Notes under the pieces: generated by a model | The model's database searches: none | Seen by the model: only the letters and a program-made list of their open reading frames with translations | Told to the model about the DNA's origin: nothing | Translations under genes and position numbers: made by a program | Shown here: piece by piece, positions 38,109 through 64,000 of the stretch | How the letters are laid out: the number at the start of each line of letters is the position of its first letter | Numbering within the stretch: position 1 is the first letter of the stretch | Assembly: GCA_045863295.1 (NCBI GenBank) | Contig: BTWA01000006.1 | Coordinates: forward strand, 128,697-192,696 | Direction of reading: 5' to 3' | DNA: 64,000 nt | From: Candidatus Hydrogenedentota bacterium | GTDB lineage: Bacteria > Hydrogenedentota > Hydrogenedentia > Hydrogenedentales > SLHB01

Positions 38109-38126
38109 CCGAACAGCCTTTCCGTA

Positions 38127-38939: not shown

Positions 38940-39772
38940 CGATAGCGCTTCCTGAAATGGCTACGAAGGAAGATCGCGCCAATGTTGACGCCCAGCACAA
39001 GAATCAGCAGTACCAGTGCCGTTCCGTACTGTGCGTTCCGGATTTCCTGCGACTCAGGGTATTGTGTCGCCAAAACGTAAAGATGATAGGGCAATGCCAT
39101 GCAAGAATCGAGTATGGAGGAAGGCAATTCGGCTTTGTAGAATGCAGCACACGTAAACAAGATCGGCGCGGTCTCTCCGGCTGCCCGTCCAATTCCGAGT
39201 ATGCTGCCTGTCAACATTCCGGGAACCGAGTACGGCAGAACGTTCTTCCAGATAGTCTCCCACTGGGTTGCGCCCAGCGCAAGACTTGCCTCTCTCAGGG
39301 AGCGCGGAACGGCACGCAACGCCTCTTCGCTGGCCACAATGATTGTGGGTAGAACCATGCACGCGAGCGTCAGGCTGCCCGAGAGAATACTCGTGTCGAA
39401 TTTAAAAAAGATCACGAATAGCCCTACGCCAAACACACCAAACACAATGGAGGGCACGCCGGCCAGTGTGACAATGGCCAGGCGAATGATGCGCACGTAG
39501 CGGCCTTGCTTCGCATACTCCGTGAGGAAAATGGCCGCGGCCATCCCTAGTGGCAAAGCCACAACGATGGTTCCGGCCACCAGATAAAATGTGCCAAGTA
39601 TGGCTGGGAAAATACTGTAATCATCGCCCGGTTTTCCCGGCATCAGGAACGCGGGTGTCAGACTGCTTGTGCCTTTGACTACGATGTCAAACACGATGTA
39701 CCCGACGGTCAACACCACGAAGTAGGCAATCCCCCTTAGCAACCAGAATCCCAGTCTTTCTTTTCTGCTCAT
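38933..39772 (-). CDS. pstA: phosphate ABC transporter permease PstA
   Basis: Six-TM permease with an EAA-like loop ([15 protein letters not shown]). It overlaps pstB by 7 nt. Confidence 0.85.
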
Positions 39773-39776
39773 TTGC

Positions 39777-41530: not shown

Positions 41531-41567
41531 ATACCGAAAGACTCCCGGGCAAGACGAGAGGCGTAGT

Positions 41568-41596
41568 GTAGCTGTCCTCTGTTAGGAAATTGTTAA
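41568..41596 (-). promoter_or_regulatory. candidate Pho box (three 7-mers at 11-bp periodicity) upstream of pstS
   Basis: The minus strand reads TTAACAA-tttc-CTAACAG-agga-CAGCTAC, 45-75 nt upstream of the pstS ATG. It resembles the PhoB direct-repeat architecture (7+4). Confidence 0.3.
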
Positions 41597-41759
41597 AACG
41601 GCCGAAAATCCTTCGCGTGCAAGTGTTTACATAAATAGTGGATTTCGCCAAAACCCACCCAATTCATCGCACTCGAACGAAGTATGTCGAGACCGAGTTA
41701 CCTGAATACACTGTAGCCGTTGATCCTTTTGCCCCCAGTGGTTTGGGCAACAGAATGTG

Positions 41760-43559
41760 TTATTCGCTGGAACCCTCGATTGGTGCCAGCGATTCTGCCA
41801 TCCGTATACTGAACTCGCTGCCCTTGTTCAGATTGCTTTCGACGCTTATCTCACCCCCGTGTAACCGGACAATATGTTTTACGATGGCCAAGCCCAGGCC
41901 GGTTCCCCCCAGTTTTCGACTTCGGGCACGGTCCACCCGGTAGAATCGTTCAAATATTCGAGGTATGTGTTCTTGCTCGATTCCGCAGCCCTGATCCCGG
42001 ACCTTTATGTAGACTCCTGCCCCATTTTTATGCGCCTCGACAAAGACTTCTGTACCGTTTTCGCTGTACTTTATGGCGTTTTCCAGTAGGTTTCCCACCG
42101 CCAATTGCAGCAATGACGGATTCATTCTGATCTGCAGTTCCGGATCGGTGTCCACCCGAAGATGGATGTTTTTGCCGGCGGCCATCTGAAGGTATTGTTG
42201 AACCGCGGCTTCCACCACCGGTGCAAGTGGCGCACGTTGAATAACGATTTCGTCGCTGTGGTCGTCCCTCTCCAGCCGTGAGAGGGTCAAGAGGTCTTCA
42301 ATCAGCAAATTCAGCCTTTCGGCCTGCTTTCCGATAATGGTTAAGAATCTCCTGGCGTCGTCTGGGTCTGACATGGCCCCTTCAAGGAGGGTTTCCACAT
42401 AACCTTTAATTGACGTTATGGGCGTTTTCAATTCGTGGGAAACGTTGGCGACGAAATCCTTGCGCGCTTGTTCTAGCCGGCGTAACCGTGTGATGTCGTA
42501 CAAGACGATAAGCACACCAAACGTTCTTCTTTTTGAATCCGTAAGTGGGGTGCCTTGAACACTGAGGACCCGTTCCTGTCGCCTGCGCAGCACGATTTCA
42601 CCCTCGACGGGTTCCATTTTTTCCAGAGCGCGCGTAATCAGGCGGAGCAACTCGGCGTTTCGAATGGCTTCATGTATGGTTCTTCCCAGTACTCTTTCGG
42701 GTTCGATTTCGATCATGCGGGCGGCCGCTGAATTCATACTCAATATTCGTTCGTCCGAGTCAATGGCGAGCACGCCCTCGATCATGGAGGACAAGACCGC
42801 TTCGAGTTCGTTCTTTTGCCGGGTAACGGCGCCCATTCGATCTTCCAACTGGAGCGCCATTCGATTCATGGCATCGGCCAGCCCCCCCATCTCCTCGGAG
42901 TCGGGGACATTTAGCCGGCTGCGCAGGTCCCCCTGTGCAAACCGGTGGGCACCTCGCGTCATTTCCTCGAGCGGCCGGGTAATTCTTCTTGAGACAATCA
43001 AGCTGAGGGGAATGGCAATGATTACGATTACGCCGCAGCCGAATGCGATTTCCCGATAGATGCGTGAGAGAGCGGATACGGCAGTGCCAAACGGCACGGC
43101 GGCGCGAACAGCCGCGATTACTTTGCCGTCCACAACGGCGGGCTTGGCGGCGTACACCATGTGGGTGTTCAACGAGTCACTGAATCGATCGGACTGTGTG
43201 GGAAGACCGGAGAGGGCCCCCCTGATCTCGGGCCGGCCGCTCAGATTTTCGATCGTATTCGGATCCGCCAGGGAATCCGCCACGACTTTGCCGTCGGGCA
43301 AAACAACCGTGATTTGGGTGCCCGATTCGCTTGCAAGCTGCCTGCAAAGGGATTGCAGGGTTTTGAAATCGCCTTCACGCAGAGGTACCAGCAAATGGGG
43401 TATGGCCAAGCTTGCCCTAGCCTCCAGATCCTGGCGGGTTTCATTGAGGTGGAATCCGCGCAACGCCGTGGAGGCGTAAATGCTCAACGCCATCGTGGTT
43501 CCCAGTATGATGACAAGGAACCACGGAAAGAGCTGCCATATGAGCCGGCGCCGCGGCAT
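41760..43559 (-). CDS. phoR: phosphate regulon sensor histidine kinase (PhoR-like, with periplasmic domain)
   Basis: Domain order TM, periplasmic domain, TM, HAMP, PAS, HisKA (SHELKTP), HATPase_c (GGTGLGLAIVKH). It sits immediately downstream of phoB. Confidence 0.8.
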   Translation of the reverse strand: MPRRRLIWQLFPWFLVIILGTTMALSIYASTALRGFHLNETRQDLEARASLAIPHLLVPLREGDFKTLQSLCRQLASESGTQITVVLPDGKVVADSLADPNTIENLSGRPEIRGALSGLPTQSDRFSDSLNTHMVYAAKPAVVDGKVIAAVRAAVPFGTAVSALSRIYREIAFGCGVIVIIAIPLSLIVSRRITRPLEEMTRGAHRFAQGDLRSRLNVPDSEEMGGLADAMNRMALQLEDRMGAVTRQKNELEAVLSSMIEGVLAIDSDERILSMNSAAARMIEIEPERVLGRTIHEAIRNAELLRLITRALEKMEPVEGEIVLRRRQERVLSVQGTPLTDSKRRTFGVLIVLYDITRLRRLEQARKDFVANVSHELKTPITSIKGYVETLLEGAMSDPDDARRFLTIIGKQAERLNLLIEDLLTLSRLERDDHSDEIVIQRAPLAPVVEAAVQQYLQMAAGKNIHLRVDTDPELQIRMNPSLLQLAVGNLLENAIKYSENGTEVFVEAHKNGAGVYIKVRDQGCGIEQEHIPRIFERFYRVDRARSRKLGGTGLGLAIVKHIVRLHGGEISVESNLNKGSEFSIRMAESLAPIEGSSE

Positions 43560-43562
43560 CAG

Positions 43563-44249
43563 CTACTCCTTGAAGCGATACCCCACACCGCGTACCGTTT
43601 CAATATACTGCCCATGACTCCCCAATTTCTTGCGCAATCCGACGATTTGTACGTCCACGGCCCTATCCGTAACAGGATACCCTTCTCCACGCACCGCGTC
43701 CACGATTTGCGATCGCGTGAACACCCAACCGGGTCTTCTTGCCAGGCATTGGAGCACTTTGAACTCCGTAAACGTCAGTTCCACCGGATTTCCTTGTAAT
43801 AGGACTTCGTGCCGGCCAGGATGGATAACCATATCATGAATTCGAAGTGGCGCCTCTTTGTCGGGTATGTCGGCTTTTCTGCGCCGCAGAACCGAATGGA
43901 TACGTGCGAGCAATATCTTGGGACTAAATGGCTTGGTAATGTAGTCGTCCGCACCCAATTCAAGGCCTCGGACTACATCGGATTCCTCTCCCCGCGCCGT
44001 CAACATAACCACGGCCAGATCCTTGGTCTTGGGGTCATTTTTCAGCAAGGTGCATATCTCAAGTCCGTTCAGGCCTGGCAACATCAGGTCCAACACTACA
44101 AGACTTGGCAGCAGTGAACGGGCTTGTTTCAGCGCTTCGCCTCCTGTGGAAACGCAGGTTACCTGAAAACCGGCCTTGGAGAGGTTATATCCAACTAGCT
44201 CCAGGATATCTTCTTCGTCGTCGACCACCAGAATCGTTTCTTTGGGCAT
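43563..44249 (-). CDS. phoB: phosphate regulon response regulator (OmpR/PhoB family)
   Basis: Receiver domain LVVDDE...D54-equivalent...K, then a winged-helix C-terminus ending GVGYRF. Confidence 0.85.
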   Translation of the reverse strand: MPKETILVVDDEEDILELVGYNLSKAGFQVTCVSTGGEALKQARSLLPSLVVLDLMLPGLNGLEICTLLKNDPKTKDLAVVMLTARGEESDVVRGLELGADDYITKPFSPKILLARIHSVLRRRKADIPDKEAPLRIHDMVIHPGRHEVLLQGNPVELTFTEFKVLQCLARRPGWVFTRSQIVDAVRGEGYPVTDRAVDVQIVGLRKKLGSHGQYIETVRGVGYRFKE

Positions 44250-44456
44250 GGCTGTTAAAGGTCTTTCCTTCAATTTCGCGCACATTGGCCACAGTACCTG
44301 CGACGATTCTACGGGTTTGCTGTTAGCGTTCCATTAAAACCGAGGAATTCTATAATTTTAACTGTCATGGCCTCGAATCCTGGGCGATGGCCTCCTTCGG
44401 CTTGCCGAATCGTTTGGCATTTTCTCTCGGCGAACGCTTCCATGTATGATGGTGCT

Positions 44457-50782: not shown

Positions 50783-52423
50783 TTAGACATACACTCCTCC
50801 TCTGAACGAACGGTCTTGTTCGATTACCACATTCACCAATGCCGGTTTTCCAGAGGCAAAGGCCCTGTCCAGGGCAGGCCGAATATCTTGCGGGCGTTCG
50901 ACAAATTCTCCGTGGCCTCCCAGTGCTTCCACCACTTTGTCATATCGGGAATAGTTCAGTTCCACTGCGACCAAACGATCTTCGCCGAAAAAGGCGGCTT
51001 GGGGCCGCATCATTTGCCCCCAGGCGGCATCGTTACCGACCACACCGACGATAGGGAGATTGTGGCGGACCGCTGTGTCGTATTCGAAACCGTTCAAGCC
51101 GAAACTGCCGTCACCATAGATAATCAGCACACGCTTTTCAGGATGAGCGGCCTGGGCCGCCAAGGCAAACGGCATGCCAACGCCAAGCGTGCCCAAGGGA
51201 CCCGGATCCATCCACAATCCGTTCTTGGGCACAGGCACGACTTTGGCCGCGGAAGCAACAATGTCTCCCCCATCGCCGATGATGATCATGTCGTCCGTAA
51301 CAACGTTGGCGATTTCCTGGCATAGCCGTGCGGCCTTAATCGGTACTGCATCAGACGCCGCCTCCTCACTGTGCTTGGCGGCCATGGCGTCTTCGATACT
51401 CCGCAGACTGGCAGCGTATTGTGAATAGTCGAGTGTTATGTTCTGTTCATCCATAACGCGCATCATGGCATCAAAGGTGCAAGCGAGATTTCCCACCAAA
51501 GCCACGTGGGATGCCCGGTTCTGGCCGATTAACGTGTTGTCCATCTCCAATTGGATAATCTTGCAGTCTTTGGGCAGCGTTGTGCCAAAGGCGAGTCGAA
51601 AATCGAGGATCGCCCCCGCCAATACCACGACGTCGCATTGTTCAAATGCCTGTCGTCGCGTGCGATTGAACAAGTGGCTTGAATCGCGCGCCACGGTGCC
51701 GCGTCCCATGCCATTGGCAAAGGCCGGCAAGTTGGTACGTTCAAGAAATGCGTTAAGCTGGGGTTGTGCATTGGACCATTTGACGCTGGTACCCGCCATG
51801 AGAAATGGCCGCTTCGCATTCCGTAGAATCTCCAACGCCTTGAGTATCTCGTCACGGGCCGGCGCGATAAGAGGCGGCGCGGATTTGATGAACGGCACTG
51901 CTGCATCGTCCCAATCGGCCTCCAGCATTAGAATGTCCATGGGAATCTCAAGATAGGAAGGTCCGGGTATTCCACTCACCGCGTGGCGAACGGCCAGTTC
52001 GACATATTCGGGAATTCGGTCGGTATGGTAACAGGCGCCCGCCCATTTCGTTATTGGGCGCATGAGTCCGATGTGATCCATCTCTTGCAGCGACCCGCGG
52101 CCAAGGTTCGCGAATGGCCCCTGGCCTCCAATGATAATCATGGGAGAATTGGCCCGCCATGCATTCGCGACACCGGTCACCGCGTCGGTTACACCGGGCC
52201 CGGCCGTAACGACTGCGCAGCCGATTTTACCGGGATTTACTCGCGACCAAGCGTCGGCCGCATGGGCCGCGGCCTGCTCATGACGAACGTCAATTACCCG
52301 AATTCCCTCGTCCAGGCAACCGTCGTAAATGGCGAATACATGCCCGCCGGACAAGGTGAAAATGCATTCCACACCCGCTTTTTTGAGCGCCCTGGCCACC
52401 AATTTGCCGCCATGCATCGACAT
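50783..52423 (-). CDS. thiamine-pyrophosphate-dependent enzyme (acetolactate synthase / oxalyl-CoA decarboxylase-like)
   Basis: N-terminal TPP_enzyme_N, a central domain, then a C-terminal TPP-binding motif GDGSFGLNGFEYDTAVRHNLPIVGVVGNDAAWG. The start is placed at the ATG preceded by GGGAGGAGGG (7-nt spacer) rather than the upstream GTG. Confidence 0.75.
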   Translation of the reverse strand: MSMHGGKLVARALKKAGVECIFTLSGGHVFAIYDGCLDEGIRVIDVRHEQAAAHAADAWSRVNPGKIGCAVVTAGPGVTDAVTGVANAWRANSPMIIIGGQGPFANLGRGSLQEMDHIGLMRPITKWAGACYHTDRIPEYVELAVRHAVSGIPGPSYLEIPMDILMLEADWDDAAVPFIKSAPPLIAPARDEILKALEILRNAKRPFLMAGTSVKWSNAQPQLNAFLERTNLPAFANGMGRGTVARDSSHLFNRTRRQAFEQCDVVVLAGAILDFRLAFGTTLPKDCKIIQLEMDNTLIGQNRASHVALVGNLACTFDAMMRVMDEQNITLDYSQYAASLRSIEDAMAAKHSEEAASDAVPIKAARLCQEIANVVTDDMIIIGDGGDIVASAAKVVPVPKNGLWMDPGPLGTLGVGMPFALAAQAAHPEKRVLIIYGDGSFGLNGFEYDTAVRHNLPIVGVVGNDAAWGQMMRPQAAFFGEDRLVAVELNYSRYDKVVEALGGHGEFVERPQDIRPALDRAFASGKPALVNVVIEQDRSFRGGVYV

Positions 52424-52497
52424 AACCAACCCTCCTCCCTCACAAGGTAGGGTGTTATACGATGTTTTGCTGGCGGGAATCGAGTTTTCGCAGCCGA

Positions 52498-54156
52498 TCA
52501 CGCATATTCTGAAGCCTCTAGAATGGCCATTACCTCGTGCGCGTGTCTTGCGCCAACAAGGGATTCCACCAAGCGGTCATCCCCTGCAACTTTGGCCACA
52601 AGCGCCAACGCGCGCAAATGGACATCGTTGGGCTCCACGGGAGAAAGCAACAGGATGACCAAGCGCACCACGGATTCCACCGCTTCATCGCTGACACCGT
52701 CCGGTGCAATCCCAATCGCCACAATTGGGTTGTCCAGTCCGGGCACACGAGCATGGGGAATGCCTGTGTGCAGTCCGAGAAACGTAGACCCCTGTGCTTC
52801 CCGATCTTGGATGGCCCGCAAAATGGCATCCAAAGACAAGGATGGGTAGTCTCTTGAGCATACTTCCGCGAGTTCTTTCAACACAGCATTCTTGGACATG
52901 GGCATTGACCAGAGCAGGATACGGCGATCGGTAACGTAGTCTGTCAGGCGCAAGGGCTTGTTTGACGCTGAAGGAGATGCACTCGTCGCTTCCGCGTTCG
53001 CTTGTCGTGAGGGCGGTTCCACTGCCGTCGATTGCGTATCGAGCACAACGACGTTGATTCCACGGGCTGTGTAGAGCAGGTCTTCCACGGGACTGACCTG
53101 TCCAAGCATGCGTCGCCACCACGTTGGCCGCCCGCCCGGCGATCCGACTACGATATGGCTGATTCGATACTCTTTCGCGAACTGGAGAATGGTTTTTACA
53201 ATATCTTCACCCTTGTACGTGAACACCGTTGCGCCCAGCTGTTGAGCGATCGCGAGCGTATTAGCCAGTACTCGCTGTGTTTGCGCGTCAATTTGAGTTG
53301 GACTTTCGGCGGTCGTCTGTACGTAGACGGCGTACCAATTCCTGTTCAGCCGTCCGGCAAGGCGAGACGCATAACGCAACAACGCTTCGCTGTTGGGGCC
53401 GCGAGAACTCAGGCATACCATGATCTGATCCAGGCTTGAGGCCGCATCGTCGCTGTCAACGTCGCGCCGGCGGGAATCAATTTGCGATGCCATCTCCCGA
53501 AGGGTCAGCTCCCTCAGCTCCGCTAGGTTCGAATCGCGGAAGAAGCTGTCTAACGCAACATCAATGCGCTCGTGCGTATAAACCTTCCCTTCGCGAAGCC
53601 TTTTGCGCAGATCCTCCGTGGTAACGTCCACATTGACAATCTCGTCCGCTTCGAGCACCACACGATCCGGAATGCGCTCGCGCACGCGCACGCCGGTACT
53701 GCGCTCAACTGTATCGTACAAACTCTCCAAATGTTGTACATTCAAGGTAGATATGACATGGATTCCAGCAGATCGAATATCTTCCACGTCCTTGTATCGC
53801 TTTGCATTCTTGCTGCCGGGAACATTGGTGTGGGCCAATTCATCCACTAGGACAACGGCTGGACGCCGTGCAAGCACTGCGCCCAGGTCCATCTCCTCGA
53901 TAACGATTCCCTTGTACCGAGACGAGCGGCGCGGGACTAACTCCAATCCGGCCACAAGCGCATCGGTTTCTTTACGTCCGTGGGTTTCCACGTAGCCCAC
54001 AACAACATCAATGCCCTCGAGCATCATGCGATGGGCTTCTTGAAGCATCTGATACGTTTTTCCCACGCCAGCGCAGTAACCCAGATAAATCTTCAGGCGT
54101 CCGCGCTGCGAACGGCGGATCATGCGCAGGAAGTTGTCAGCCCGTGTTGATTCCAT
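52498..54156 (-). CDS. soluble KdpD N-terminal sensor domain + USP domain + PTS EIIA(Ntr)-like domain fusion (no histidine-kinase domain)
   Basis: The N-terminus RGRLKIYLGYCAGVGKTYQML is the KdpD-domain P-loop-like start. A USP-like region (IMVCLSS...HIVVGSPGG) follows. The C-terminal ~150 aa show the EIIA type-2 pattern with a His in GLHTGIPHARV. There are no TM helices and no HisKA/HATPase. Last gene after kdpC. Confidence 0.7.
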   Translation of the reverse strand: MESTRADNFLRMIRRSQRGRLKIYLGYCAGVGKTYQMLQEAHRMMLEGIDVVVGYVETHGRKETDALVAGLELVPRRSSRYKGIVIEEMDLGAVLARRPAVVLVDELAHTNVPGSKNAKRYKDVEDIRSAGIHVISTLNVQHLESLYDTVERSTGVRVRERIPDRVVLEADEIVNVDVTTEDLRKRLREGKVYTHERIDVALDSFFRDSNLAELRELTLREMASQIDSRRRDVDSDDAASSLDQIMVCLSSRGPNSEALLRYASRLAGRLNRNWYAVYVQTTAESPTQIDAQTQRVLANTLAIAQQLGATVFTYKGEDIVKTILQFAKEYRISHIVVGSPGGRPTWWRRMLGQVSPVEDLLYTARGINVVVLDTQSTAVEPPSRQANAEATSASPSASNKPLRLTDYVTDRRILLWSMPMSKNAVLKELAEVCSRDYPSLSLDAILRAIQDREAQGSTFLGLHTGIPHARVPGLDNPIVAIGIAPDGVSDEAVESVVRLVILLLSPVEPNDVHLRALALVAKVAGDDRLVESLVGARHAHEVMAILEASEYA

Positions 54157-54176
54157 GGGTTTTCCGTATTCAATCC

Positions 54177-54740
54177 TTAGCCTTGGCCATCCAAAGCCAT
54201 ATTGATTTCAAGTACATTCACCAAAGAATCCGGCGTAAACGGCCCGCCAGGACGTCTCGCTTTGCCCTCGACGATTTGCTTCACGATTCCTGGATCCATT
54301 CCGCGGGCGGCAGCCACTCGTTCGACCTGAAAAAGCGCGGCTTCCAACGTTATGTCCGGATCCATGCCACTGCCCGAGGCCGTCACAAGATCGGCCGGAA
54401 TGGGATCGGTTGATTCACCGTGGCGGCTTTGAAAGTCGGCGACCCTGTCTTTCAGCACCGGGTTTAGTGGGCTCAAGTTGCTGCCACCGGTGCTGGCCGC
54501 GTTGTAGTCCACGGCGGAAGGCCTTGGCCAAAAGTAGTTGGCGGATGTAAACGACTGGCTCAGCACCCGGCTTCCAACAATCTGGCCATCCGCATTGGTG
54601 AGCAGGCTTCCATTCGCCGTGAAAGGCGTGAGACCCTGACCAATGCCCCAAATGGAGAGGGGATACGCAATCGAACAAACAGCAATCGTACAAGCCCAGA
54701 TGCGTACACACGCGAGTAGTTGGTCGGAATTGGTTTTCAT
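54177..54740 (-). CDS. kdpC: potassium-transporting ATPase subunit C
   Basis: Single N-terminal TM, then GSNLSPLNP...ASGSGMDPDIT(L)EAA, which are conserved KdpC motifs. Confidence 0.85.
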   Translation of the reverse strand: MKTNSDQLLACVRIWACTIAVCSIAYPLSIWGIGQGLTPFTANGSLLTNADGQIVGSRVLSQSFTSANYFWPRPSAVDYNAASTGGSNLSPLNPVLKDRVADFQSRHGESTDPIPADLVTASGSGMDPDITLEAALFQVERVAAARGMDPGIVKQIVEGKARRPGGPFTPDSLVNVLEINMALDGQG

Positions 54741-54752
54741 ACACTTTCCATC

Positions 54753-56822
54753 CTATGCCAATCTCGTGATAACGAGCACGAGGTCGATTACTTTAATGCC
54801 TACAAACGGGGCAATGACACCGCCGATTCCATAGATCAGCAAGTTCCTGCGCAGTATTGCGTCTGCGCCAATGGGCCGGTACTTGACGCCCTTGATGGCG
54901 ATGGGAACCAGCAACGGAATAACGATGGCATTGAAGATAACTGCCGACAGGATTGCGCTGTTTGGCGATCCCAGTCGCATGATGTTCAATGCGCTCAATT
55001 GCGGTATGGCCAACATGAACATGGCGGGCACTATGGCAAAATACTTCGCCACATCGTTCGCAATGGAAAATGTCGTCAACGCACCCCGGGTCATCAACAA
55101 TTGCTTACCAATTTCGATGACTTCAATGAGCTTTGTTGGGTCGCTGTCCAAATCAACCATATTGCCTGCTTCCTTGGCGGCGTGGGTGCCGGAATTCATG
55201 GCCACGCCGATATCGGCTTGGGCAAGTGCAGGTGCGTCATTTGTTCCATCGCCCATCATGGCTATCAGATGGCCTTTTGCCTGCTCCTTTCGAATGTAAT
55301 CCAGTTTATCCTCGGGTTTCGCCTCGGCAATGTAATCATCGACTCCGGCTTGTCTGGCAATCGCGGCCGCGGTCAACGGATTGTCTCCCGTAACCATAAC
55401 CACACGCAGGCCCATGCTGCGAAGACGGACAAAGCGATCCCGTATACCCGGTTTCAATACATCCGACAACGCGATCACACCCAGGATTTCTTTTCCCTCC
55501 GCAACCACAATGGGCGTTGATCCGGCACGCGCCACGGATTCGACTAGGTCCTTCAGTTCCCGTGGCACGGCGCCGCCTTGTCCGGAGACATATGTAACTA
55601 CCGCATCGCTCGCGCCTTTTCGGTAACTCTTTCCCATAGGAACGTCCAGTCCGCTCAGGCGAGTCTGGGCCGTAAAGGGAATCACGACAGACCCTGGAAC
55701 TTCCTGAGGAACCGCATTTCCGAGCGTTTCTTCGCCCAAGGAAACAATCGATCGTCCTTCTGGGGTCCTATCCCCAAAGGAGGCAAGCATCCCGGCTTCG
55801 GCAAGCCTCCTGCGAACAATGCCGGGTAGCGGGTGGTATTCTGTCGCGTGCCGGTTGCCCATGGTAATCGTACCGGTCTTGTCGAGCAGCAAAGTATCGA
55901 CGTCACCGGCGAGTTCCACGGCCTTGCCGCTCTTCGCCAACACATTGGCCGACAAGGCGTGATCCATGCCTGCCAGCCCGATTGCAGCCAACAATGCTCC
56001 AATGGTAGTGGGTATAAGGCAAACGAGTAACGCCACAAGCGTCGGTACGGGGATATCGACTCCAAAGTAGCGCCCAATCGGCCACAAAGCCATCGTTACC
56101 ATCAGAAACGACAAGGTCAGACCTGCAAGTGTTACCGTCAAGGCGATTTCGTTTGGGGTCTTTTGACGGATTGCTCCTTCGACCAGCGCGATCATCCGAT
56201 CGAGAAATGACTCGCCCGCACCGGCGGTGATTTTAATGGTCAGCCGATCAGAAAGCACCCGCGTCCCGCCGGTAACCCCGGATCGATCGCCGCCTGCTTC
56301 GCGCACCACCGGGGCGGATTCCCCTGTAATCGCGGACTCGTCCACCGTAGCGGCACCATCCACCACTTCACCATCGCTTGGAATTACTTCCCCTGCCTTG
56401 ACAACAACTACGTCGCCATTGGAAAGGGCATCCGAAGCAACCATTTCTTCCTTGCCATTGGAAAGGCGCCGCGCCGGCGTGCTCTTGCGTGTTGATCGAA
56501 GTGTATCGGCCTGGGCCCGGCCACGCGCCTCGGCCAGTGCTTCCGCAAAATTTGCGAAGATGACCGTCAACCAAAGCACAAGCGTCAATACGGTTGTGTG
56601 CGCCAGGTTGCCGGCGCCTTGCATCACATCAAGAACAAGCACGACGGTGCTGAGCGCAGCGCCTATTTCAGTGACAAACATGACGGGGTTGCGCGCCATG
56701 ATATCCGGACGTAACATTGCCAGCGATTGAATCGCGGCGGCACGCACAAGCTTTCCATCAAAGAGCGATGCCTTGCGCGCGTGGCGGCGAACCAGCTTGG
56801 CTGAATCCAATTCTGTACTCAT
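54753..56822 (-). CDS. kdpB: potassium-transporting P-type ATPase subunit B
   Basis: Phosphorylation motif DKTGTIT, TGDN, GDGTNDAPAL, and the KdpB-specific N-terminus. Confidence 0.9.
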   Translation of the reverse strand: MSTELDSAKLVRRHARKASLFDGKLVRAAAIQSLAMLRPDIMARNPVMFVTEIGAALSTVVLVLDVMQGAGNLAHTTVLTLVLWLTVIFANFAEALAEARGRAQADTLRSTRKSTPARRLSNGKEEMVASDALSNGDVVVVKAGEVIPSDGEVVDGAATVDESAITGESAPVVREAGGDRSGVTGGTRVLSDRLTIKITAGAGESFLDRMIALVEGAIRQKTPNEIALTVTLAGLTLSFLMVTMALWPIGRYFGVDIPVPTLVALLVCLIPTTIGALLAAIGLAGMDHALSANVLAKSGKAVELAGDVDTLLLDKTGTITMGNRHATEYHPLPGIVRRRLAEAGMLASFGDRTPEGRSIVSLGEETLGNAVPQEVPGSVVIPFTAQTRLSGLDVPMGKSYRKGASDAVVTYVSGQGGAVPRELKDLVESVARAGSTPIVVAEGKEILGVIALSDVLKPGIRDRFVRLRSMGLRVVMVTGDNPLTAAAIARQAGVDDYIAEAKPEDKLDYIRKEQAKGHLIAMMGDGTNDAPALAQADIGVAMNSGTHAAKEAGNMVDLDSDPTKLIEVIEIGKQLLMTRGALTTFSIANDVAKYFAIVPAMFMLAIPQLSALNIMRLGSPNSAILSAVIFNAIVIPLLVPIAIKGVKYRPIGADAILRRNLLIYGIGGVIAPFVGIKVIDLVLVITRLA

Positions 56823-56853
56823 GATTTCATAAACTCCGTTAAAGATACGTGTA

Positions 56854-58530
56854 TTACAGGGTTCCGGCGAGGTGCTCGGCAATGGGGCCAAGCACCGCCA
56901 CCGGAAGGAAGAGTAGCGCGCCTATGAGCGCAACACTTCCCAGCAAGACCAACCCGAACATGGGTGTGTCGGTACGAAATGTGCCAGTAGACTCAGGCAC
57001 CGGCTTTTTGGCGGCCAGCGATCCAGCAATGGCCAAAGGCAGAATAATGGGCACATAGCGGCAAAAGAGCATCACGAGGCCCGTGGCAAGATTCCACGGA
57101 ATCGTATTGTCTCCAAGACCTTCGTAACCCGATCCGTTGTTGGCCGCAGCCGAGGAGAACTCGTACAGAATCTCCGTGAAGCCGCGTGCTCCTGGATTCT
57201 TTACGGTTCCAATTCCCCAGGAGGTGGCGGCGAATGCAGCCGTACCGCCCAAGATGCACAACGGATGAAGCAGCAGTGCGATGAGCGCCAGCTTCATCTC
57301 GCGTGTTTCCACCTTGCGCGCCAGATATTCGGGCGTACGTCCTACCATCATGCCGCAAATAAAGACACCGATGATGATATAGATGAACATGTTGATCATG
57401 CCGACGCCCACGCCACCGAACGTTACATTGAGCCACATACCGGCCAATGGGGCGAGACCGGTCAACGGATTCAGGCTATTGTGCATGGCGTTAACCGAAC
57501 CATTACTGGTGGACGTGGTCGCGGTTGCCCAGAACGGTGCGGCGGTGGCGCCAAAGCGCAGCTCTTTCCCTTCCAGGTTGCTTGACTCCGTGGAAACCGG
57601 CAAGCCGGCAAAAGAGGCCGTAGGCTCCGATTCCCAACAAACCGCCCACGAAACCTTGCAAACGAATAGCATCATCATGACTGTGAATATCACGGCCGCA
57701 TGGCGCATTCGGCCAGTTATTCTGCCAAACATCCAGACGCTTGCCATCGGAATGATGATAATGCAGAGACATTCCACGCAATTTGTAAAGAACGATACGT
57801 TTTCATAGGAATGCGTCGAGTTTGGCCCGAAGAAACCACCACCGTTGGTACCCAATTGCTTGATGGTAACGAACGCAGCCACGGGGCCTCTCGCAATCGT
57901 CTGTACGGCGCCTTCCAGAGTGGTCGCCTGTATGGCCCCACCAAAGGTCATGGCAATTCCACCAAGAACCAATGTTGTGGCCACGACGAATGCCACTGGC
58001 ACAAGGAACAACAAGGTCGCGCGCAAGAGGTCGCGATAGAAGTTTCCGATCTTGACGCTACCGGACAAGCCACGCGCCATGGCAGCGAGCGCGGCTATGC
58101 CCGTAGCGGCAGAAACAAACTGCAGCCACATCAGCGCACCCAATTGCGAAAAATAGCTCAGCGTGGACTCGCCGGAATAGTGCTGCAGATTGGTGTTGGT
58201 GACAAAAGACACCACGGTGTTGAATACCAGACTGGGCTCTATTGAGCCCAGTCTGTCGGGGTTCAAGGGAAGGTGCTGCTGTATGCTCAAGACCGCAAAC
58301 ACGAAAATGAACATGCACACGTTGAAAAGCAGCAGTGCCAGACAGTACTGCTTCCAATTCTGTTCCCTTCGCGCTGCCGGTCCGGTCACCCAAACGATTA
58401 CGCGTTCCATGGATACGCGCAATCCCGTCTCAGCGACGGGATCACTCATGGCCCAGGTCAAGTACCGTCCAAGCGGTACCGAAATTAGGACCGCTGTGCC
58501 GAGGAACATAATTACCAATGCGATTGACAT
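56854..58530 (-). CDS. kdpA: potassium-transporting ATPase subunit A
   Basis: Ten-TM KdpA with selectivity-filter-like G-rich loops (TNTNLQHY; GTNGGGFFG; NNGSGYEG). Confidence 0.9.
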   Translation of the reverse strand: MSIALVIMFLGTAVLISVPLGRYLTWAMSDPVAETGLRVSMERVIVWVTGPAARREQNWKQYCLALLLFNVCMFIFVFAVLSIQQHLPLNPDRLGSIEPSLVFNTVVSFVTNTNLQHYSGESTLSYFSQLGALMWLQFVSAATGIAALAAMARGLSGSVKIGNFYRDLLRATLLFLVPVAFVVATTLVLGGIAMTFGGAIQATTLEGAVQTIARGPVAAFVTIKQLGTNGGGFFGPNSTHSYENVSFFTNCVECLCIIIIPMASVWMFGRITGRMRHAAVIFTVMMMLFVCKVSWAVCWESEPTASFAGLPVSTESSNLEGKELRFGATAAPFWATATTSTSNGSVNAMHNSLNPLTGLAPLAGMWLNVTFGGVGVGMINMFIYIIIGVFICGMMVGRTPEYLARKVETREMKLALIALLLHPLCILGGTAAFAATSWGIGTVKNPGARGFTEILYEFSSAAANNGSGYEGLGDNTIPWNLATGLVMLFCRYVPIILPLAIAGSLAAKKPVPESTGTFRTDTPMFGLVLLGSVALIGALLFLPVAVLGPIAEHLAGTL

Positions 58531-58665
58531 AACTTCCTGTCCTTCATTAGGAGCCGCACTCTGTTGGCGGCGAATATTCCCGTATGCCGCGCCATTGCGG
58601 CGCGTAGCCATACAAGGAATCAAGGGTTTGTCCTGCCGGATGTACCGGCGTCGGGTGACTACAAA

Positions 58666-58746
58666 TCAGAACCGTTCAGGTCTGATCATGGCGTATGTCA
58701 AATACGCAAAGCAGAACAGGCCAATAAATGCGCTCAACCAACTCAT
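58666..58746 (-). CDS. kdpF: potassium-transporting ATPase subunit F (26-aa hydrophobic peptide)
   Basis: Translation MSWLSAFIGLFCFAYLTYAMIRPERF matches the KdpF consensus (MSxxxxxGxxxxxxLxxYLxYALxxPExF). It lies upstream of kdpA. Confidence 0.7.
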   Translation of the reverse strand: MSWLSAFIGLFCFAYLTYAMIRPERF

Positions 58747-59002
58747 GAAATTACTCCCAGTATTCAATTCGACGCGAGCTTCAAGCATGAGTCAATTCTC
58801 TTCTGCCAGGGTGCTGCACGGACTGTTCGCACTAAAGAGGTCCCTGGACAGACCGGACTTTTTGCATGCCGCCAACCCTTCTCCAGGAACTTGCTTGAGC
58901 ATCAAGATCAGGTTGGCGCACACGCGGAGGTTATCAACACAAGCAAACCCAACACTCCCAATCCAATCCCGAAGCACACCAGTAGGAACAGCATTTCACC
59001 AT

Positions 59003-60862
59003 TTACTCCATTGAAGTTGTATATGTAGCACCCATAGGCGACGCCGCGGGCAATGTAAACCACACGGTAGTTCCATGGCCGAGTTCTGACTCGACGCCGA
59101 TACTTCCGCCATGAGCCGCGACAATCTGACGCGCGATAGTCAATCCAAGTCCGGCTCCGGTTCCTTTTGGTTGTCCATCAGCACGATAAAATGGTTCAAA
59201 TGCGTGTGCCGCTTCGTCCTTTGACATTCCCGCACCTGTGTCGGAAATGCTGAACTTCACCATGCCCTCATTGGCCTCACAGTCCACACTGATCTCTCCG
59301 CCCGCGGTGGTGCACCGAATCGCGTTTGACAGTATGTTACTGAACACATGCTTCATGCGATCCGCATCCGCAAGTACGGATGGGACATCCACACCGGCCC
59401 GATTGACCAGCGCGATTCCTTTGTCGGTCGCCTCTGTCAAAAAGGCGTCAACAGCATCCCTGGTCAACGAATGCGCCTTGACAACCTCAAACTCCATCGC
59501 GCTCTTTCCTGACTGCATTTGGCGAATGTCCAATAAATCGCAAACTATTCCTGAAAGACGGTCGCAATCGTCCCGCGCCGCAAGTACGAGTTCGACTTGC
59601 TTCTCATTTAGCACACCCACCTGGTCATTCAAGAGCAAATGCAGCGACAATCGCAGAGAGGTAAGCGGGGTCTTCAACTGGTGAGATACCGTTGCGATTG
59701 CGTCTTGCTTAAGTTCGGCCTGTTCTTGCGCATAAGTCACATCCCGCAACATAACGGCCACTCCCGTAACCTCGCCGGAATGCGGCCCGACTGGTATAGG
59801 CATAATTACAGGCTTAAAGAAGTGCTCCTCATTGTCGATAAACCGCTGAATGACACCTTCTCCATCCGATTGTTCGATGACTCGCCGTTCGATGAACGCC
59901 TTGGCAATCAGAGGCGGCAACCAGTCCAGTCCCGCATCCCTGACTCTCCTGCCTTGTTCAAGCCCGAAATGCCGTGCTGCCGACTCGGTCGCCACTTCCA
60001 CGCGTCCTTCCAAATCAAGTACGGCCACCGTGGCGGGCAACGCCTTGAATACGTTTTCCGTGCCCTCTTTCCTTCTACGCAATTCCAACTGCTCTGCTCG
60101 CCGGACACTGCGCAGCGAAGCGGCCATTTCGTTAAACGTCTCTGAGAGTTGCCCTAATTCGTCGGTCGATCTGACAGGTAGCACAAGATCCAGATTGCCC
60201 TGCTTTATGTCGAGCGCCGATTGCGTTAACACTCGTATTGGACTAAGCACCCAGACGTGAATCAGATACCCGAAAAGAACCGCTACGGAAGCACAAACGA
60301 GGAAAGCCAAGGACATACGCCGCATTGCCGCCGCGGCCTCTTCACGGGCCAGGTTGTTCGCCTCATGTATGTTGCTCTGATTAAGATCGAGTATGGACTG
60401 GGCCGAACTCTTGATTTCATAGAAATGCGGCAGCAGGCTCTCAAAATAAGCGGTCTGACGATCTTGAGCCGGTTTGGACTTGTCTCTCGCGGATTCCAGT
60501 ATATGAACATACTCCCCGAAGAGTTCACGCACGTGCTCGGCCTTTTCGCGCTCTCCAGGAATCGTGATATTATTTAGCTCTACATCGAGCGCCGACTGGA
60601 ATTTTTGTACATGATCGTCAATCAAGCGGTCGCCTTGTTCTTCATAATCCAGCAACGTGAAAAGAATGCCGCTGTCAATCCGCTCCAACGACTCCTTCAT
60701 CTCCTGACACGCGATCACGCTCCGGTAGTTCTCCCGGAGTATGGTGTCAATGGCATCGCCGAGTCGGCTGATCTGAAGCATCGTAAGTCCACCGATCACG
60801 CCGATGGTGACCAGGATGCCCGCAAATCCAAGAAGCAACTTCTGTCGAATACCAAACCGCAT
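59003..60862 (-). CDS. sensor histidine kinase (TM, periplasmic helical sensor, TM, HAMP, PAS, HisKA, HATPase_c)
   Basis: HisKA H-box VSHQLKTPLTS, and N, G1 and G2 boxes (NILSNAIRCT, DTGAGM, GAGLGLTIAR). The start is set at the ATG preceded by GAGGAG, because the upstream TTG codon lies upstream of the predicted sigma-54 transcription start. Confidence 0.8.
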   Translation of the reverse strand: MRFGIRQKLLLGFAGILVTIGVIGGLTMLQISRLGDAIDTILRENYRSVIACQEMKESLERIDSGILFTLLDYEEQGDRLIDDHVQKFQSALDVELNNITIPGEREKAEHVRELFGEYVHILESARDKSKPAQDRQTAYFESLLPHFYEIKSSAQSILDLNQSNIHEANNLAREEAAAAMRRMSLAFLVCASVAVLFGYLIHVWVLSPIRVLTQSALDIKQGNLDLVLPVRSTDELGQLSETFNEMAASLRSVRRAEQLELRRRKEGTENVFKALPATVAVLDLEGRVEVATESAARHFGLEQGRRVRDAGLDWLPPLIAKAFIERRVIEQSDGEGVIQRFIDNEEHFFKPVIMPIPVGPHSGEVTGVAVMLRDVTYAQEQAELKQDAIATVSHQLKTPLTSLRLSLHLLLNDQVGVLNEKQVELVLAARDDCDRLSGIVCDLLDIRQMQSGKSAMEFEVVKAHSLTRDAVDAFLTEATDKGIALVNRAGVDVPSVLADADRMKHVFSNILSNAIRCTTAGGEISVDCEANEGMVKFSISDTGAGMSKDEAAHAFEPFYRADGQPKGTGAGLGLTIARQIVAAHGGSIGVESELGHGTTVWFTLPAASPMGATYTTSME

Positions 60863-60884
60863 TTCGCACTCCTCATCCAATCAG

Positions 60885-60900
60885 TGCATTTGCCGTGCCA
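60885..60900 (-). promoter_or_regulatory. sigma-54 (-24/-12) promoter: TGGCACG-N4-aTGCA
   Basis: The minus strand reads TGGCACGGCAAATGCA. The GG and GC dinucleotides sit at the canonical 10-nt spacing, with one mismatch to TGGCACG-N4-TTGCA. The predicted TSS is ~12 nt downstream, leaving a short leader with GAGGAG before the kinase ATG. Confidence 0.55.
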
Positions 60901-60954
60901 ACCCAATAATTAGCAATTACAAGAGGTTACACAGTTTAAAAGGAGAAGGCGCCA

Positions 60955-60999
60955 TGCAATATGCATCCTGCATTGACTGAATGGATTGCAAAATGCAAT
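60955..60999. promoter_or_regulatory. candidate enhancer (UAS) palindromes for a bacterial enhancer-binding protein
   Basis: TGCAATATGCA..TGCATTG and the palindrome ATTGCAaaaTGCAAT lie 55-115 bp upstream of the sigma-54 promoter. Spacing and dyad symmetry are typical of NtrC-family binding sites. Confidence 0.35.
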
Positions 61000-61057
61000 A
61001 CCGCTCCGAAAATTGGAGACAGAAGGATGGGCGTAAAGTAGGAATTTCGCGGGACTG

Positions 61058-62392
61058 TCAAATGCCGTATTGCTTACGCTTACGATACAAGGTTGCTTGG
61101 TCGATACCAAGAATTTCAGCAGCCTGTTGAAGTGACCGCGTCGAGGCCAGTACGCGCCGGATGTGGCTTTCCTCCAGTTCCTCGAGCGAGATGAGTTCCC
61201 CCTGTCTACCTGAATGCAAGAGGCTGTTGTCGTCCACTGCCAACGGTAAGTCCAATTGATCAATCACAGGCGTGGTGCTGAGAATCACGGCGCGCTCGAT
61301 AACGTTGCGGAGCTCACGCACGTTGCCCGGCCACCCGTGGCATTCCAGGGTCCGCTCGGCCTTCGTGCCGAACCGCATCGCAGTCTTATGATTCTGCGAC
61401 GCGAAAAACTGAAGCATTCGGTGTGCAAGCAAAACGATATCCTCCCGGCGTTCACGCAGCGGGGGAACAATGACGGGGATTACAGAGAGGCGGTAGTAGA
61501 GGTCTTCGCGAAATCGGCCCTCATCGACCGCGGCTTTCAGATCGATATTGGTGGCTACGATTAGGCGCACATCTGCGCGCCGTGTAACATTCTCCCCTAC
61601 GCGTTCATACTCACGGTCCTGAATGAAACGAAGTAGTTTGGACTGAACCGGTTTTGGCAAGTCACCGATTTCGTCCAAAAAGAGCGTCCCACCATCGCAA
61701 CCCGCGATCCTGCCCGGATTGTCGCGAACTGCCCCCGTAAACGCCCCTTTCACGTGTCCAAACAATTCGCTTTCGAGCAAATCAGGGCTCAGCGAGGGGC
61801 AGGAGACTACGCATAGCGGTCGCGGCGCGCGCGCGCTCCATTGATGTATGCACCGGGCAAGCACGCTTTTTCCAGTGCCACTCTCGCCGCAAAGCAACAC
61901 GATGGCCTCGGAGGCGGCGGCCTTTCGCGCAAGATCCAACGTGCGCTTCATCGCGGGACTGTCGGAATCCACAATGGTCTCGGGGTGCAGGCGGTTGAGA
62001 TCGTCTTGCAACGCGGCGATCTGCTGCTCCATGGTTCGAATCTCTGAAACTCGATTCATTACAAGGAGCACTTGATCCGGCTTGAACGGCTTCGAAATGT
62101 AGTCCGATGCGCCGAGGCGCATGGCTTCGACAGCGGTTTCAATGGTTGCAAAGGCCGTAATGACCACAATCCGTGTCCAAGGAGACACAGCGCGTAGCGT
62201 GGGAATCAGTTCCAAGCCACTTTCGGTTCCAAGCCGCAAATCAACAAATGCCATGTCAAACGCGGAGCGCTCCGACTCTGACGCCGCATCGCGCGGGTTT
62301 GAAACCGCCTTCACCGTATGACCTTCGGACTCCAGATATAATGCCAGCGTGCGCCGTATGTTGGGTTCGTCATCGACAATCAGAATCTTCAC
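61058..62392 (-). CDS. sigma-54-dependent response regulator (NtrC/Fis family bEBP)
   Basis: Receiver (KILIVDDE...D...K), AAA+ sigma-54 activation domain (GESGTGKS; the GAFTGA motif; ESELFGH) and a C-terminal Fis-type HTH. The start is assigned to a GTG with AGGAA upstream, since the in-frame extension has no ATG. Confidence 0.85.
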   Translation of the reverse strand: MKILIVDDEPNIRRTLALYLESEGHTVKAVSNPRDAASESERSAFDMAFVDLRLGTESGLELIPTLRAVSPWTRIVVITAFATIETAVEAMRLGASDYISKPFKPDQVLLVMNRVSEIRTMEQQIAALQDDLNRLHPETIVDSDSPAMKRTLDLARKAAASEAIVLLCGESGTGKSVLARCIHQWSARAPRPLCVVSCPSLSPDLLESELFGHVKGAFTGAVRDNPGRIAGCDGGTLFLDEIGDLPKPVQSKLLRFIQDREYERVGENVTRRADVRLIVATNIDLKAAVDEGRFREDLYYRLSVIPVIVPPLRERREDIVLLAHRMLQFFASQNHKTAMRFGTKAERTLECHGWPGNVRELRNVIERAVILSTTPVIDQLDLPLAVDDNSLLHSGRQGELISLEELEESHIRRVLASTRSLQQAAEILGIDQATLYRKRKQYGI

Positions 62393-62432
62393 CGGGGACA
62401 ATTCCTGGACGTTGTACGTAAGGTGGCCATGT

Positions 62433-63104
62433 CTAATTGATATTGGGTGCTGCGCCCTGCAGATCGCCTTTGATGGCGTAGCCAGCGATATGTGTTGAGG
62501 CCAGCAACATCCGTGGAACGGTAAACGATTCGCACTCAACGCGCTGGAATCCAGAGTCCAGGATGGACCGTTGCGTGTCTCGATTCGGTTGGCAACCGTC
62601 GGCCAGACAGGACCAGACCGGTTGAATGCCGTTCTGTATGCCTCTCTGCACGGTTCCCGGTTGGGCAATCACATGCTCGATAAATGTGAATCGTCCACCC
62701 GGTTTCAGCACTCGCTTGATTTCGTTTAAAACGAGCGCCGGATCGGAAACGGAACACAGTACAAGTGTACAGACAACGGCATCGACGGACCCGTCCGCAA
62801 TATCAAGGGCTTCGCCCTTTCCACGGATGACGTCGACGGCAATACCAAAGTGTCTGGCTTCGGAGAGCAGGTAGGGATGCATATAGGGATTGGGCTCCAC
62901 AGCGGCCAGCCGAATCTCCTTCGGGTAGAAGGGCATGTTGGCGCCAGCCCCCGCCCCGATTTCCAACACGGTACCGTGTAGATCGCCGAGCAGTAATTTC
63001 TTCCGCTCTCCGTAAAACCGGTTCATGGGCCCTTCGGCCTTGTGCATAAACCATGCAAACCCGTGCTGCGCCAACCTGCGACGCAATGAACGCTTGTATT
63101 TCAT
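62433..63104 (-). CDS. class I SAM-dependent methyltransferase
   Basis: Motif I VLEIGAGAGAN, followed by an acidic residue at the end of beta2 and motif post-I/II DAVVCTLVLC, then RVLKPGGRF. Confidence 0.7.
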   Translation of the reverse strand: MKYKRSLRRRLAQHGFAWFMHKAEGPMNRFYGERKKLLLGDLHGTVLEIGAGAGANMPFYPKEIRLAAVEPNPYMHPYLLSEARHFGIAVDVIRGKGEALDIADGSVDAVVCTLVLCSVSDPALVLNEIKRVLKPGGRFTFIEHVIAQPGTVQRGIQNGIQPVWSCLADGCQPNRDTQRSILDSGFQRVECESFTVPRMLLASTHIAGYAIKGDLQGAAPNIN

Positions 63105-63109
63105 GTTTT

Positions 63110-64000
63110 TCAACGAGTAACCATGCTTCGCATGGCCCCTTCCACGTTGGGATGGTGAAATCCAAACCCACTCCGCAACAGCCGTTCCGGCATAACCCGT
63201 GCACTGGAAAGCAACATTTCGTCGGCCATGGCGCCGAGGGCAAGACGCGCCGCAAACGCCGGCATCGGCAAGAGCGTAGGCCGCCGTAGCACACGCCCCA
63301 AAGTCTTGGTAAGCTCCCGATTGGTTACTGGATTGGGCGAAACCAAATTCACAGGTCCAATAACCGTATCGCAAGCAAGCAAGTGGACGATTGCGCCAAT
63401 TGCGTCTTCAATCGCTATCCAACTCATCCACTGATTCCCCGGTCCAACAACGCCACCAAGTCCCAGGCCGAATGCCGTGCGCATCAGGGCAAACGCACCC
63501 CCTTCAGAGCCGAAGACGGCGCCGAAACGGAGATTACATATACGGATTCCAACTTCGCGGGCGGGATGCGTGGCCGACTCCCATTCTTTGCACACTCGAG
63601 CAAGGAATCCGTCGCCATGCGGGCTGTCTTCCGTGAGTATATCGTCGCCGCGGTTTCCATAGATTCCCACAGCAGATGCGCACAACCATACTTTTGGGCG
63701 CCGCTCCAGGGAACAAAGTACATTTGCCAAGAGTTTGGTAGACCTGACACGGCTCTCCAGTATCGCCTGTTTGCGTTCCTTCGTCCAACGGCCTCCAGCA
63801 ACGTTTTCGCCCGATAGGTGAATTACCGCATCAATGTTTTCCAAAGCTGACTCGGGCAGTATTCCCTCGCTCGGATTCCAACTGACCTCTTGAGACCCAT
63901 GTGATGTCCGAGTCCGAACAAGTTTGCGGCAACTATGACCCTGGTTCGATAGATCGTCGACTAATCGACGGCCTATTAGCCCCGAAGCGCCTGAAATCAG
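63110..64000 (-). CDS. NAD-dependent epimerase/dehydratase-family protein (YfcH/DUF1731-like), 5' end truncated by the window edge
   Basis: The reading frame continues to the last base of the window. The N-terminus there reads ...LISGASGLIGRRL (Rossmann GxxGxxG). The C-terminal region matches the YfcH-type DUF1731. Confidence 0.65.
   Translation of the reverse strand: MISGASGLIGRRLVDDLSNQGHSCRKLVRTRTSHGSQEVSWNPSEGILPESALENIDAVIHLSGENVAGGRWTKERKQAILESRVRSTKLLANVLCSLERRPKVWLCASAVGIYGNRGDDILTEDSPHGDGFLARVCKEWESATHPAREVGIRICNLRFGAVFGSEGGAFALMRTAFGLGLGGVVGPGNQWMSWIAIEDAIGAIVHLLACDTVIGPVNLVSPNPVTNRELTKTLGRVLRRPTLLPMPAFAARLALGAMADEMLLSSARVMPERLLRSGFGFHHPNVEGAMRSMVTR

Follow-up and report, generated by a model that had tools for sequence, protein, structure and literature searches.

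Classical kdp operons have a sigma-70-type promoter and are controlled by KdpE, a regulator of the OmpR family. At glnAp2, a -24/-12 promoter, activation is by phosphorylated NtrC, a protein built of REC, AAA+ and helix-turn-helix (HTH) domains, whose dimers occupy two upstream sites spaced by about three helical turns. A kdp operon under a regulator of the NtrC family has been described in Desulfovibrio vulgaris: Rajeev et al. (2011) mapped the targets of its response regulators by DNA-affinity chip (DAP-chip), reported that DVU3334 binds upstream of its own kdp operon and predicted CGTTACATTTTGTAACGG as its site (PMC3333781). The kinase there is split into DVU3336 (a K+ sensor domain plus UspA) and DVU3335. 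The same paper assigned a site in S. fumaroxidans, CGTTTCATTTTGAAATGT, upstream of the histidine kinase gene Sfum_2621, to the regulator Sfum_2622, and identified orthologues of DVU3334 in no more than two further species (PMC3333781). In the sigma-54 regulome of Kazakov et al. (2015), DVU3334, with its GAFTGA motif, is listed with the regulon DVU3339.1-DVU3337, which serves potassium uptake (PMC4641369). Here we analyze a kdp locus in a 64-kb stretch of DNA from a Candidatus Hydrogenedentota bacterium (hereafter 'the window') and propose, from sequence comparison, that it is likely a kdp operon of the DVU3334 type, dependent on sigma-54. A preliminary description of this DNA had implied that such control was new, but DVU3334/DVU3335/DVU3336 and kdpFABC have already been published, complete with a split KdpD; beyond these two Desulfovibrio papers (PMC3333781, PMC4641369), no report of sigma-54 control of kdp was found in the literature searched. 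What is added here is the breadth of the distribution, the geometry of two activator sites, and the occurrence in Hydrogenedentota.

The genes of the locus lie on the minus strand, and domains were assigned with Pfam and with NCBIfam models at their curated cut-offs. Pfam confirmed every gene named in the preliminary description. A methyltransferase gene ends 40 bp before the first gene of interest, which has a GTG start and encodes a 444-residue response regulator (RR) of the NtrC family, a sigma-54 enhancer-binding protein (61058-62392), 100% identical to NCBI protein P0001 from a Candidatus Hydrogenedentota metagenome-assembled genome (MAG). It matches Response_reg, Sigma54_activat (1.3e-62), AAA_lid_14 and HTH_8, and it has everything expected of a bacterial enhancer-binding protein: a REC domain with its acceptor aspartate (D51 in FVDLRLG), an AAA+ domain with Walker A (GESGTGKS), the GAFTGA loop and Walker B (LFLDEIGD), and a C-terminal Fis-type HTH ending in ATLYRKRKQYGI. 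These motif residues do not vary in an alignment of 15 orthologues. The second gene (59003-60862) encodes a sensor histidine kinase (HK) of 619 residues, laid out as a predicted transmembrane (TM) helix, an extracytoplasmic helical domain of about 150 residues, a second predicted TM helix, HAMP, PAS, HisKA (H-box SHQLKTPL) and HATPase_c. Its Pfam matches are 4HB_MCP_1 (weak), followed by HAMP, PAS_4, HisKA and HATPase_c; the N-terminus, M(R/I)GIRQKL, is common to the orthologues, and no solved structure is related in sequence to the sensor domain.

The gap between the RR stop codon and the HK ATG, 195 bp long, contains a candidate sigma-54 promoter and two candidate upstream activator sites (UAS). 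The -24/-12 element, TGGCACGGCAAATGCA (60885-60900, minus strand), differs at one position from TGGCACG-N4-TTGCW; its GG and GC are spaced by exactly 10 bp within TGGCAC-N5-TTGC, again with one mismatch. The -12 C lies at 60886, 23 nt from the HK ATG, so transcription is predicted to start at about 60874, the position also given in the preliminary description. The distal palindrome, UAS1 (ATTGCATTTTGCAAT, 60985-60999), is centered 94 bp upstream of the -24 G, and the proximal one, UAS2 (GATGCATATTGCATG, 60953-60967), 62 bp upstream of it and 32 bp from UAS1. The promoter element and palindromes are located as first described, and they are conserved across orthologous loci (below). Another palindrome, ATGCAGGATGCAT (60962-60974), was considered as the second site and rejected because only GATGCATATTGCATG fits the conserved spacings of 32 and 62 bp. 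The chance of a promoter match in the right orientation within the 195-bp gap is about 0.002 (1.1 x 195/128000), and the palindrome TTGYA-N3-TRCAA occurs once in the window (0.18 expected), its sole occurrence being in this gap.

For comparison we assembled nine related loci, seven through exact protein look-up (among them a second Hydrogenedentes MAG, Desulforegula conservatrix and several large MAG contigs) and two through a scan of genome contigs (one Deltaproteobacteria MAG and one Syntrophobacteraceae MAG). The contig scan with the RR alignment keyed on generic AAA+ peptides (LFLDEIGD, LLESELFG) and returned mostly paralogues, which were reused as negative controls. A very large number of RR homologues, from several phyla, have 61-66% identity; identity to the window's RR is 62-64% in seven of the loci used here (L001, L003, L005 and L086-L089) and 58-61% in the other two (L006, L007). 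The kdp genes adjoin the RR and HK genes in all nine. The other 76 loci among the matches listed, with RR identities of 52% or less, are without kdp, apart from two Mucilaginibacter loci. The whole set of RR, separate HK, kdpFABC and a kinase-less KdpD-N/Usp protein is found in seven related loci as well as in the window.

The candidate regulatory sites recur in these loci with nearly the same geometry. TGGCAY-N6-TGC, the invariant core of the promoter element, stands ahead of the HK gene in all 10 orthologous loci (the window included), in seven of them 23-35 nt before the start codon. Seven loci, again counting the window, have two CTTGYA-N3-TRCAAG palindromes centered 94-95 and 62-63 bp upstream of the -24 G; with the shorter motif TTGYA-N3-TRCAA, two sites 31-33 bp apart, the nearer about 60-63 bp upstream of the -24/-12 element, are present in 8 of 10 loci from several phyla. 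We then searched for the composite element, defined as two sites separated by 30-33 bp and, 64-70 bp after the second, the promoter core. In 8 of 10 loci it was found in the gap between RR and HK, as UAS1, 31-33 bp, UAS2, 65-68 bp and TGGCAY-N6-TGC, and not once in 1.32 Mb of control loci searched on both strands; a single additional match, in L087, comes from reading its palindrome pair in reverse on the opposite strand. When the eight gaps were aligned, the only invariant motif columns were TTG..CAA, TG..CA and GGCA..TGC, together with one isolated A column, against a mean column identity of 53%. This alignment is a phylogenetic footprint of a predicted sigma-54 promoter with two putative activator sites three helical turns apart, and it is conservation, not the statistics of the window, that establishes the predicted promoter. 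In one of the related loci (L088, 15892-17582), kdpB was called as two fragments of 175 and 294 residues, which may reflect a frameshift or an assembly error.

Several observations weigh against the assignment. The predicted start point is the first G of GAGGAG, 12 nt ahead of the ATG at 60862, which leaves a leader of just 12 nt with the Shine-Dalgarno sequence at +1. UAS2 of the window is degenerate, with three mismatches to the 15-mer consensus. No rpoN gene was found among the open reading frames (ORFs) scanned in the window, and its presence in the genome is assumed. The putative orthology to DVU3334 is argued from the motif, the gene context and a bridging locus in Syntrophobacteraceae (described below). 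The distance from HK to kdpF, 256 bp, is longer than in most relatives; we return to it below. Finally, the promoter match is not significant window-wide, since two matches with at most one mismatch were found where 1.10 are expected. Taken alone, this last count would allow the promoter and palindromes to be chance matches in an AT-richer intergenic region, next to an RR and HK unrelated to kdp. We find this explanation hardly credible: it is refuted by a geometry that is fixed in 8 of 10 loci and absent from the controls, by the restriction of invariance to the motif columns, and by the adjacency of kdp in every related locus. A sigma-54 scan, as had been suggested, places a near-consensus match in the gap that window-wide is no better than chance, and conservation decides the matter.

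The figures above are counts of mismatches to the consensus and of matches to the invariant core. A position weight matrix built from the ten orthologous promoter sites was dropped because it did not rank the window's own site among its top 12, its spacer columns and last base being overfitted with only ten sequences. The core has four matches in the window (1.03 expected). One, TGGCATGCCGTTTGCC (51164-51179, minus strand), lies within a thiamine pyrophosphate (TPP)-enzyme gene directly downstream of the kdp cluster, and another, TGGCACACCGTGTGCA, is at 15747-15762 (minus strand). A near-consensus element, TGGCGCGCGACTTGCT (9114-9129, plus strand), precedes a gene for a PEP-CTERM protein, whose ATG (9187) lies about 58 nt further downstream. 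Genes for PEP-CTERM proteins are often sigma-54 dependent, so this element may be a second real sigma-54 promoter of the window.

Next, we asked whether kdpFABC itself is a target of the predicted promoter. Beyond HK and a small ORF (58908-58994) lie kdpF (58666-58746; 26 residues, MSWLSAFIGLFCFAYLTYAMIRPERF; Potass_KdpF, 7.6e-07), kdpA (longest ORF 56854-58623; KdpA, 1.7e-210), kdpB, the P-type ATPase subunit (54753-56891, start coordinate approximate; E1-E2_ATPase and Hydrolase), and kdpC (54177-54740; KdpC, 2.9e-57). The Pfam match of kdpA begins only at residue 39, and its start is likely the ATG at 58530, which yields 558 residues, orthologues having 552-558. The HK-kdpF gap contains an extra spacer of 161 bp (58747-58907, minus strand) that is not present in related loci, where about 10 nt take its place. 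This spacer holds one weak hairpin (58839-58854) followed by a poor T tract, and it might conceal a terminator or some unfamiliar kind of promoter. The sigma-54 promoter might then drive HK and the small ORF alone, with kdpFABC transcribed from an unrecognized promoter in the 256-bp gap, possibly under a different regulator.

We consider this separate promoter unlikely. The spacer has no sigma-54 site (the best candidate has five mismatches), and no colinear locus has a second one between HK and kdpF, the best candidates there having four or five mismatches. No sigma-70-like promoter was found on the minus strand of 52000-63500, and hairpins resembling terminators were, in the same interval, below rather than above shuffle expectation. 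Rfam detected no riboswitch or other RNA family in 58400-61200, and the spacer folds no better than its shuffles (z = +1.0). In the relatives HK, the small ORF and kdpF are closely packed. In addition, kdpFABC of Desulforegula is divergent from the RR-HK-KdpD-N genes, and there kdpF and HK each have their own TTGCATTTTGCAA site and -24/-12 element: site CTTGCATTTTGCAAT and promoter TGGCATGCAATATGCT for kdpF, site CTTGCATTTTGCAAG and promoter TGGCACAAATCCTGCT for HK. A detached kdpFABC thus keeps the same UAS and predicted sigma-54 promoter, which places the pump genes directly in the regulon. Because the spacer of the window shows no promoter-like site, Rfam match or stable fold and only the one weak hairpin, co-transcription of HK through kdp is the best reading of the sequence.

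The pair of RR and HK had been called NtrY/NtrX-like, and there is a likeness in that the layout of HK is similar (TM, HAMP, PAS, HisKA) and RR also belongs to the NtrC family. The name is not supported by the model scores: RR reached 318.4 bits with the NtrX equivalog, whose cut-off is 600, and no NtrY model appeared in the top 25 for HK. RR passes no NCBIfam equivalog, and the best models for HK are of the WalK, PnpS and PhoR types, all below cut-off. Among the matches listed, the named relative nearest to RR is AlgB of Pseudomonas, which is 49% identical to it along the whole sequence in three genomes of this genus, and 'AlgB' is also the label that RR orthologues bear in JGI/KEGG. AlgB is the NtrC-family response regulator of alginate regulation, and KinB is its kinase. 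The recognition-helix stretch TLYRKRKQY is identical in AlgB and the window's RR, but the Pseudomonas genes have no adjacent kdp, and the kinase next to them is 27% identical in its cytoplasmic part only. Upstream of the AlgB-like gene of Pseudomonas sp. PDM15 (L011, 9886-9931) there are two sites, CTTGCAATCTGCAAG and CGTGCAACTTGCACG, 31 bp apart at -115 and -84. This motif and spacing, like those of the kdp enhancer, suggest that AlgB may share its DNA specificity; the motif pair was not seen upstream of the gene in the other two genomes (L009, L010).

The claim that kdp is here accompanied by an NtrC-family activator and a non-KdpD kinase instead of KdpD/KdpE is borne out within the window, which contains neither a KdpD kinase nor a KdpE. 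The only regulator of the OmpR type (43563-44285) and its HAMP/PAS kinase (41760-43559) are directly upstream of pstS, pstC, pstA, pstB and phoU, and together these genes form a PhoR/PhoB-type phosphate locus (37413-44285, minus strand). A 64-kb view of a genome leaves room for a classical KdpD/KdpE pair elsewhere that would be the main controller, with the NtrC-type pair as a secondary input, and the DNA upstream of D. vulgaris kdp is a target of three response regulators (PMC3333781). We judge such an arrangement very unlikely, since the KdpD homologue of the operon is without its kinase half, the window's one OmpR-type pair sits with pstSCAB-phoU, and the linkage of RR, HK and kdp is conserved across phyla.

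Altogether, a sigma-54-dependent operon would work as follows. RR would be made from its own upstream transcript and, by the NtrC paradigm, be phosphorylated at D51 by the membrane-bound HK, presumably in response to K+ limitation or a related ionic stress, as the gene context suggests. Dimers of phosphorylated RR would bind the two palindromes, which are centered about 118 and 86 bp upstream of the predicted start point; an AAA+ ring would form and, using ATP and the GAFTGA loop, open the sigma-54 closed complex at TGGCACG-N4-ATGCA. One transcript would then carry HK, the small ORF for a membrane peptide, kdpFABC and the gene of a soluble KdpD-N/Usp/EIIA protein, and induction would raise HK and this accessory sensor along with the pump. 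The accessory protein would substitute for the cytoplasmic input half of classical KdpD and probably modulate HK or RR according to the cytoplasmic K+ or nucleotide state and to phosphorylation by the nitrogen phosphotransferase system (PTS). Since HK and the accessory gene are on the induced transcript, positive feedback would act on the sensor arm and not on RR. The positive autoregulation first proposed for the system is thus kept for HK and the accessory protein, whose genes are downstream of the promoter, and dropped for RR, whose gene is upstream of it. Gene content, motifs, conservation and the fixed geometry are direct observations; from them we infer which proteins are partners in the phosphorelay, that a single transcript is made, that K+ limitation is the signal, and what the accessory protein does.

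The small ORF in front of kdpF (58908-58994, minus strand) is unannotated and encodes a hydrophobic peptide of 28 residues, MLFLLVCFGIGLGVLGLLVLITSACAPT. ORFs for homologous peptides of 27-29 residues occupy the same position in L001 (13397-13480), L003 (about 9577-9666, minus strand), L006, L007, L086 (5489-5572), L087 (13399-13485) and L089 (13398-13481), and also in L045 (11652-11735), a Bacteroidota kdp locus from Mucilaginibacter. A likely copy in L088 has no ATG of its own and overlaps the HK stop codon. Most copies, for example MLSLVYVSMGLLVLLAMAGLTVLCDRV and MSFALYMILGLAIFAVLAALTVACDKI, finish in C-[DE]-[RK]-[ILV]; that of the window has a divergent C-terminus, SACAPT. The peptide has no match in Pfam or NCBIfam.

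The accessory protein encoded after kdpC (52498-54156, minus strand; 552 residues) combines KdpD-N, Usp and PTS_EIIA_2 domains with no kinase. Its P-loop GVGKT (G30-T34) and the histidine kept in its EIIA(Ntr)-like domain (TGIPHARV; P467-H468-A469) are unvaried in 15 homologues. The best-scoring model was KdpD_non_kinase (NF038185), with 369 bits at a cut-off of 550 and a match over residues 6-339 that leaves the EIIA domain outside; the PtsN model gave 53 bits (cut-off 139). The fusion is common, as both domains are present in all of the best 120 homologue clusters; it is absent from two related loci, whose accessory proteins have 381-385 residues. Public names of the homologues are 'PTS sugar transporter subunit IIA' or 'sensor histidine kinase KdpD'. 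When it is not phosphorylated, EIIA(Ntr) of E. coli and of Rhizobium binds to KdpD and stimulates the expression of kdp (PMC3665714), so the fusion plausibly makes this input part of the system; the interaction of PtsN with KdpD seems to be recorded in it as a domain fusion. Neither the KdpD-N/EIIA fusion nor the small peptide is described in the literature searched. A possible but doubtful extension is that the locus encodes an uncharacterized three-part K+ sensor, in which a fused, possibly phosphorylatable EIIA(Ntr) hard-wires the PtsN-KdpD interaction onto a non-KdpD kinase and a sigma-54 activator, and the membrane peptide of 27-29 residues acts as an extra Kdp subunit or as a kinase regulator. 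The EIIA fusion offers a natural handle on nitrogen-PTS signaling into potassium homeostasis.

The known picture of kdp regulation is unchanged in kind by these results. Its range is extended: sigma-54/NtrC-type control, reported for D. vulgaris and two relatives only, would reach Hydrogenedentota, several Desulfobacterota lineages and other phyla. The geometry of enhancer and promoter is nearly invariant, so that the recognition motif of RR can be read straight from the comparison, and two sets of annotation labels, 'AlgB' for RR and those of the accessory protein, could be corrected.

Compared with the described systems, the locus shares with E. coli KdpD/KdpE the pump genes and the use of KdpD N-terminal and Usp domains as an input module. 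The E. coli kinase is contained in KdpD itself, and kdpDE follows kdpC, whereas the window has an AAA+ enhancer-binding activator, an unrelated HAMP/PAS kinase and a predicted -24/-12 promoter. The two-site arrangement and the type of activator resemble glnAp2, from which the locus differs in site sequence, target genes and sensing kinase. Two Mucilaginibacter loci (L014, L045) also have an NtrC-family RR gene directly upstream of a small ORF, kdpF, kdpABC, KdpD-N and HK, but this RR is only 37-38% identical to that of the window and the gap contains no convincing -24/-12 element or TTGCA palindrome; these loci look like an independent or very distant variant. The Mucilaginibacter RR gene terminates in a clear hairpin-T terminator.

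The closest counterpart is D. vulgaris DVU3334/3335/3336, which likewise combines a sigma-54-dependent kdp operon, an NtrC-family RR with GAFTGA and regulators encoded with the operon, and in which KdpD is similarly split, with KdpD-N and Usp in a protein that lacks the kinase and HK as a protein of its own. A palindrome TTNCA-TTT-TGNAA about 150 bp upstream is another common feature. The matching motif of DVU3334 is GTTACATTTTGTAAC, and ATTGCATTTTGCAAT of the window has the same architecture as the published CGTTACATTTTGTAACGG and CGTTTCATTTTGAAATGT. A bridge between both sets of motifs is the Syntrophobacteraceae locus L007, which has ATTTCATTTTGAAAT and an RR 58% identical to that of the window. 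In S. fumaroxidans, the position of the site upstream of the HK gene beside the RR gene suggests the order RR-then-HK, as in the window. D. vulgaris itself has the order kdpFABC-KdpDN-HK-RR with an autoregulated RR, whereas in the window the RR gene is upstream, outside the predicted sigma-54 transcript, and HK comes first. The half-sites also differ (TTACA in D. vulgaris, TTGCA in the window), the D. vulgaris accessory protein as described in the paper is without the EIIA domain that is fused in the window, and the phylum here is Hydrogenedentota.

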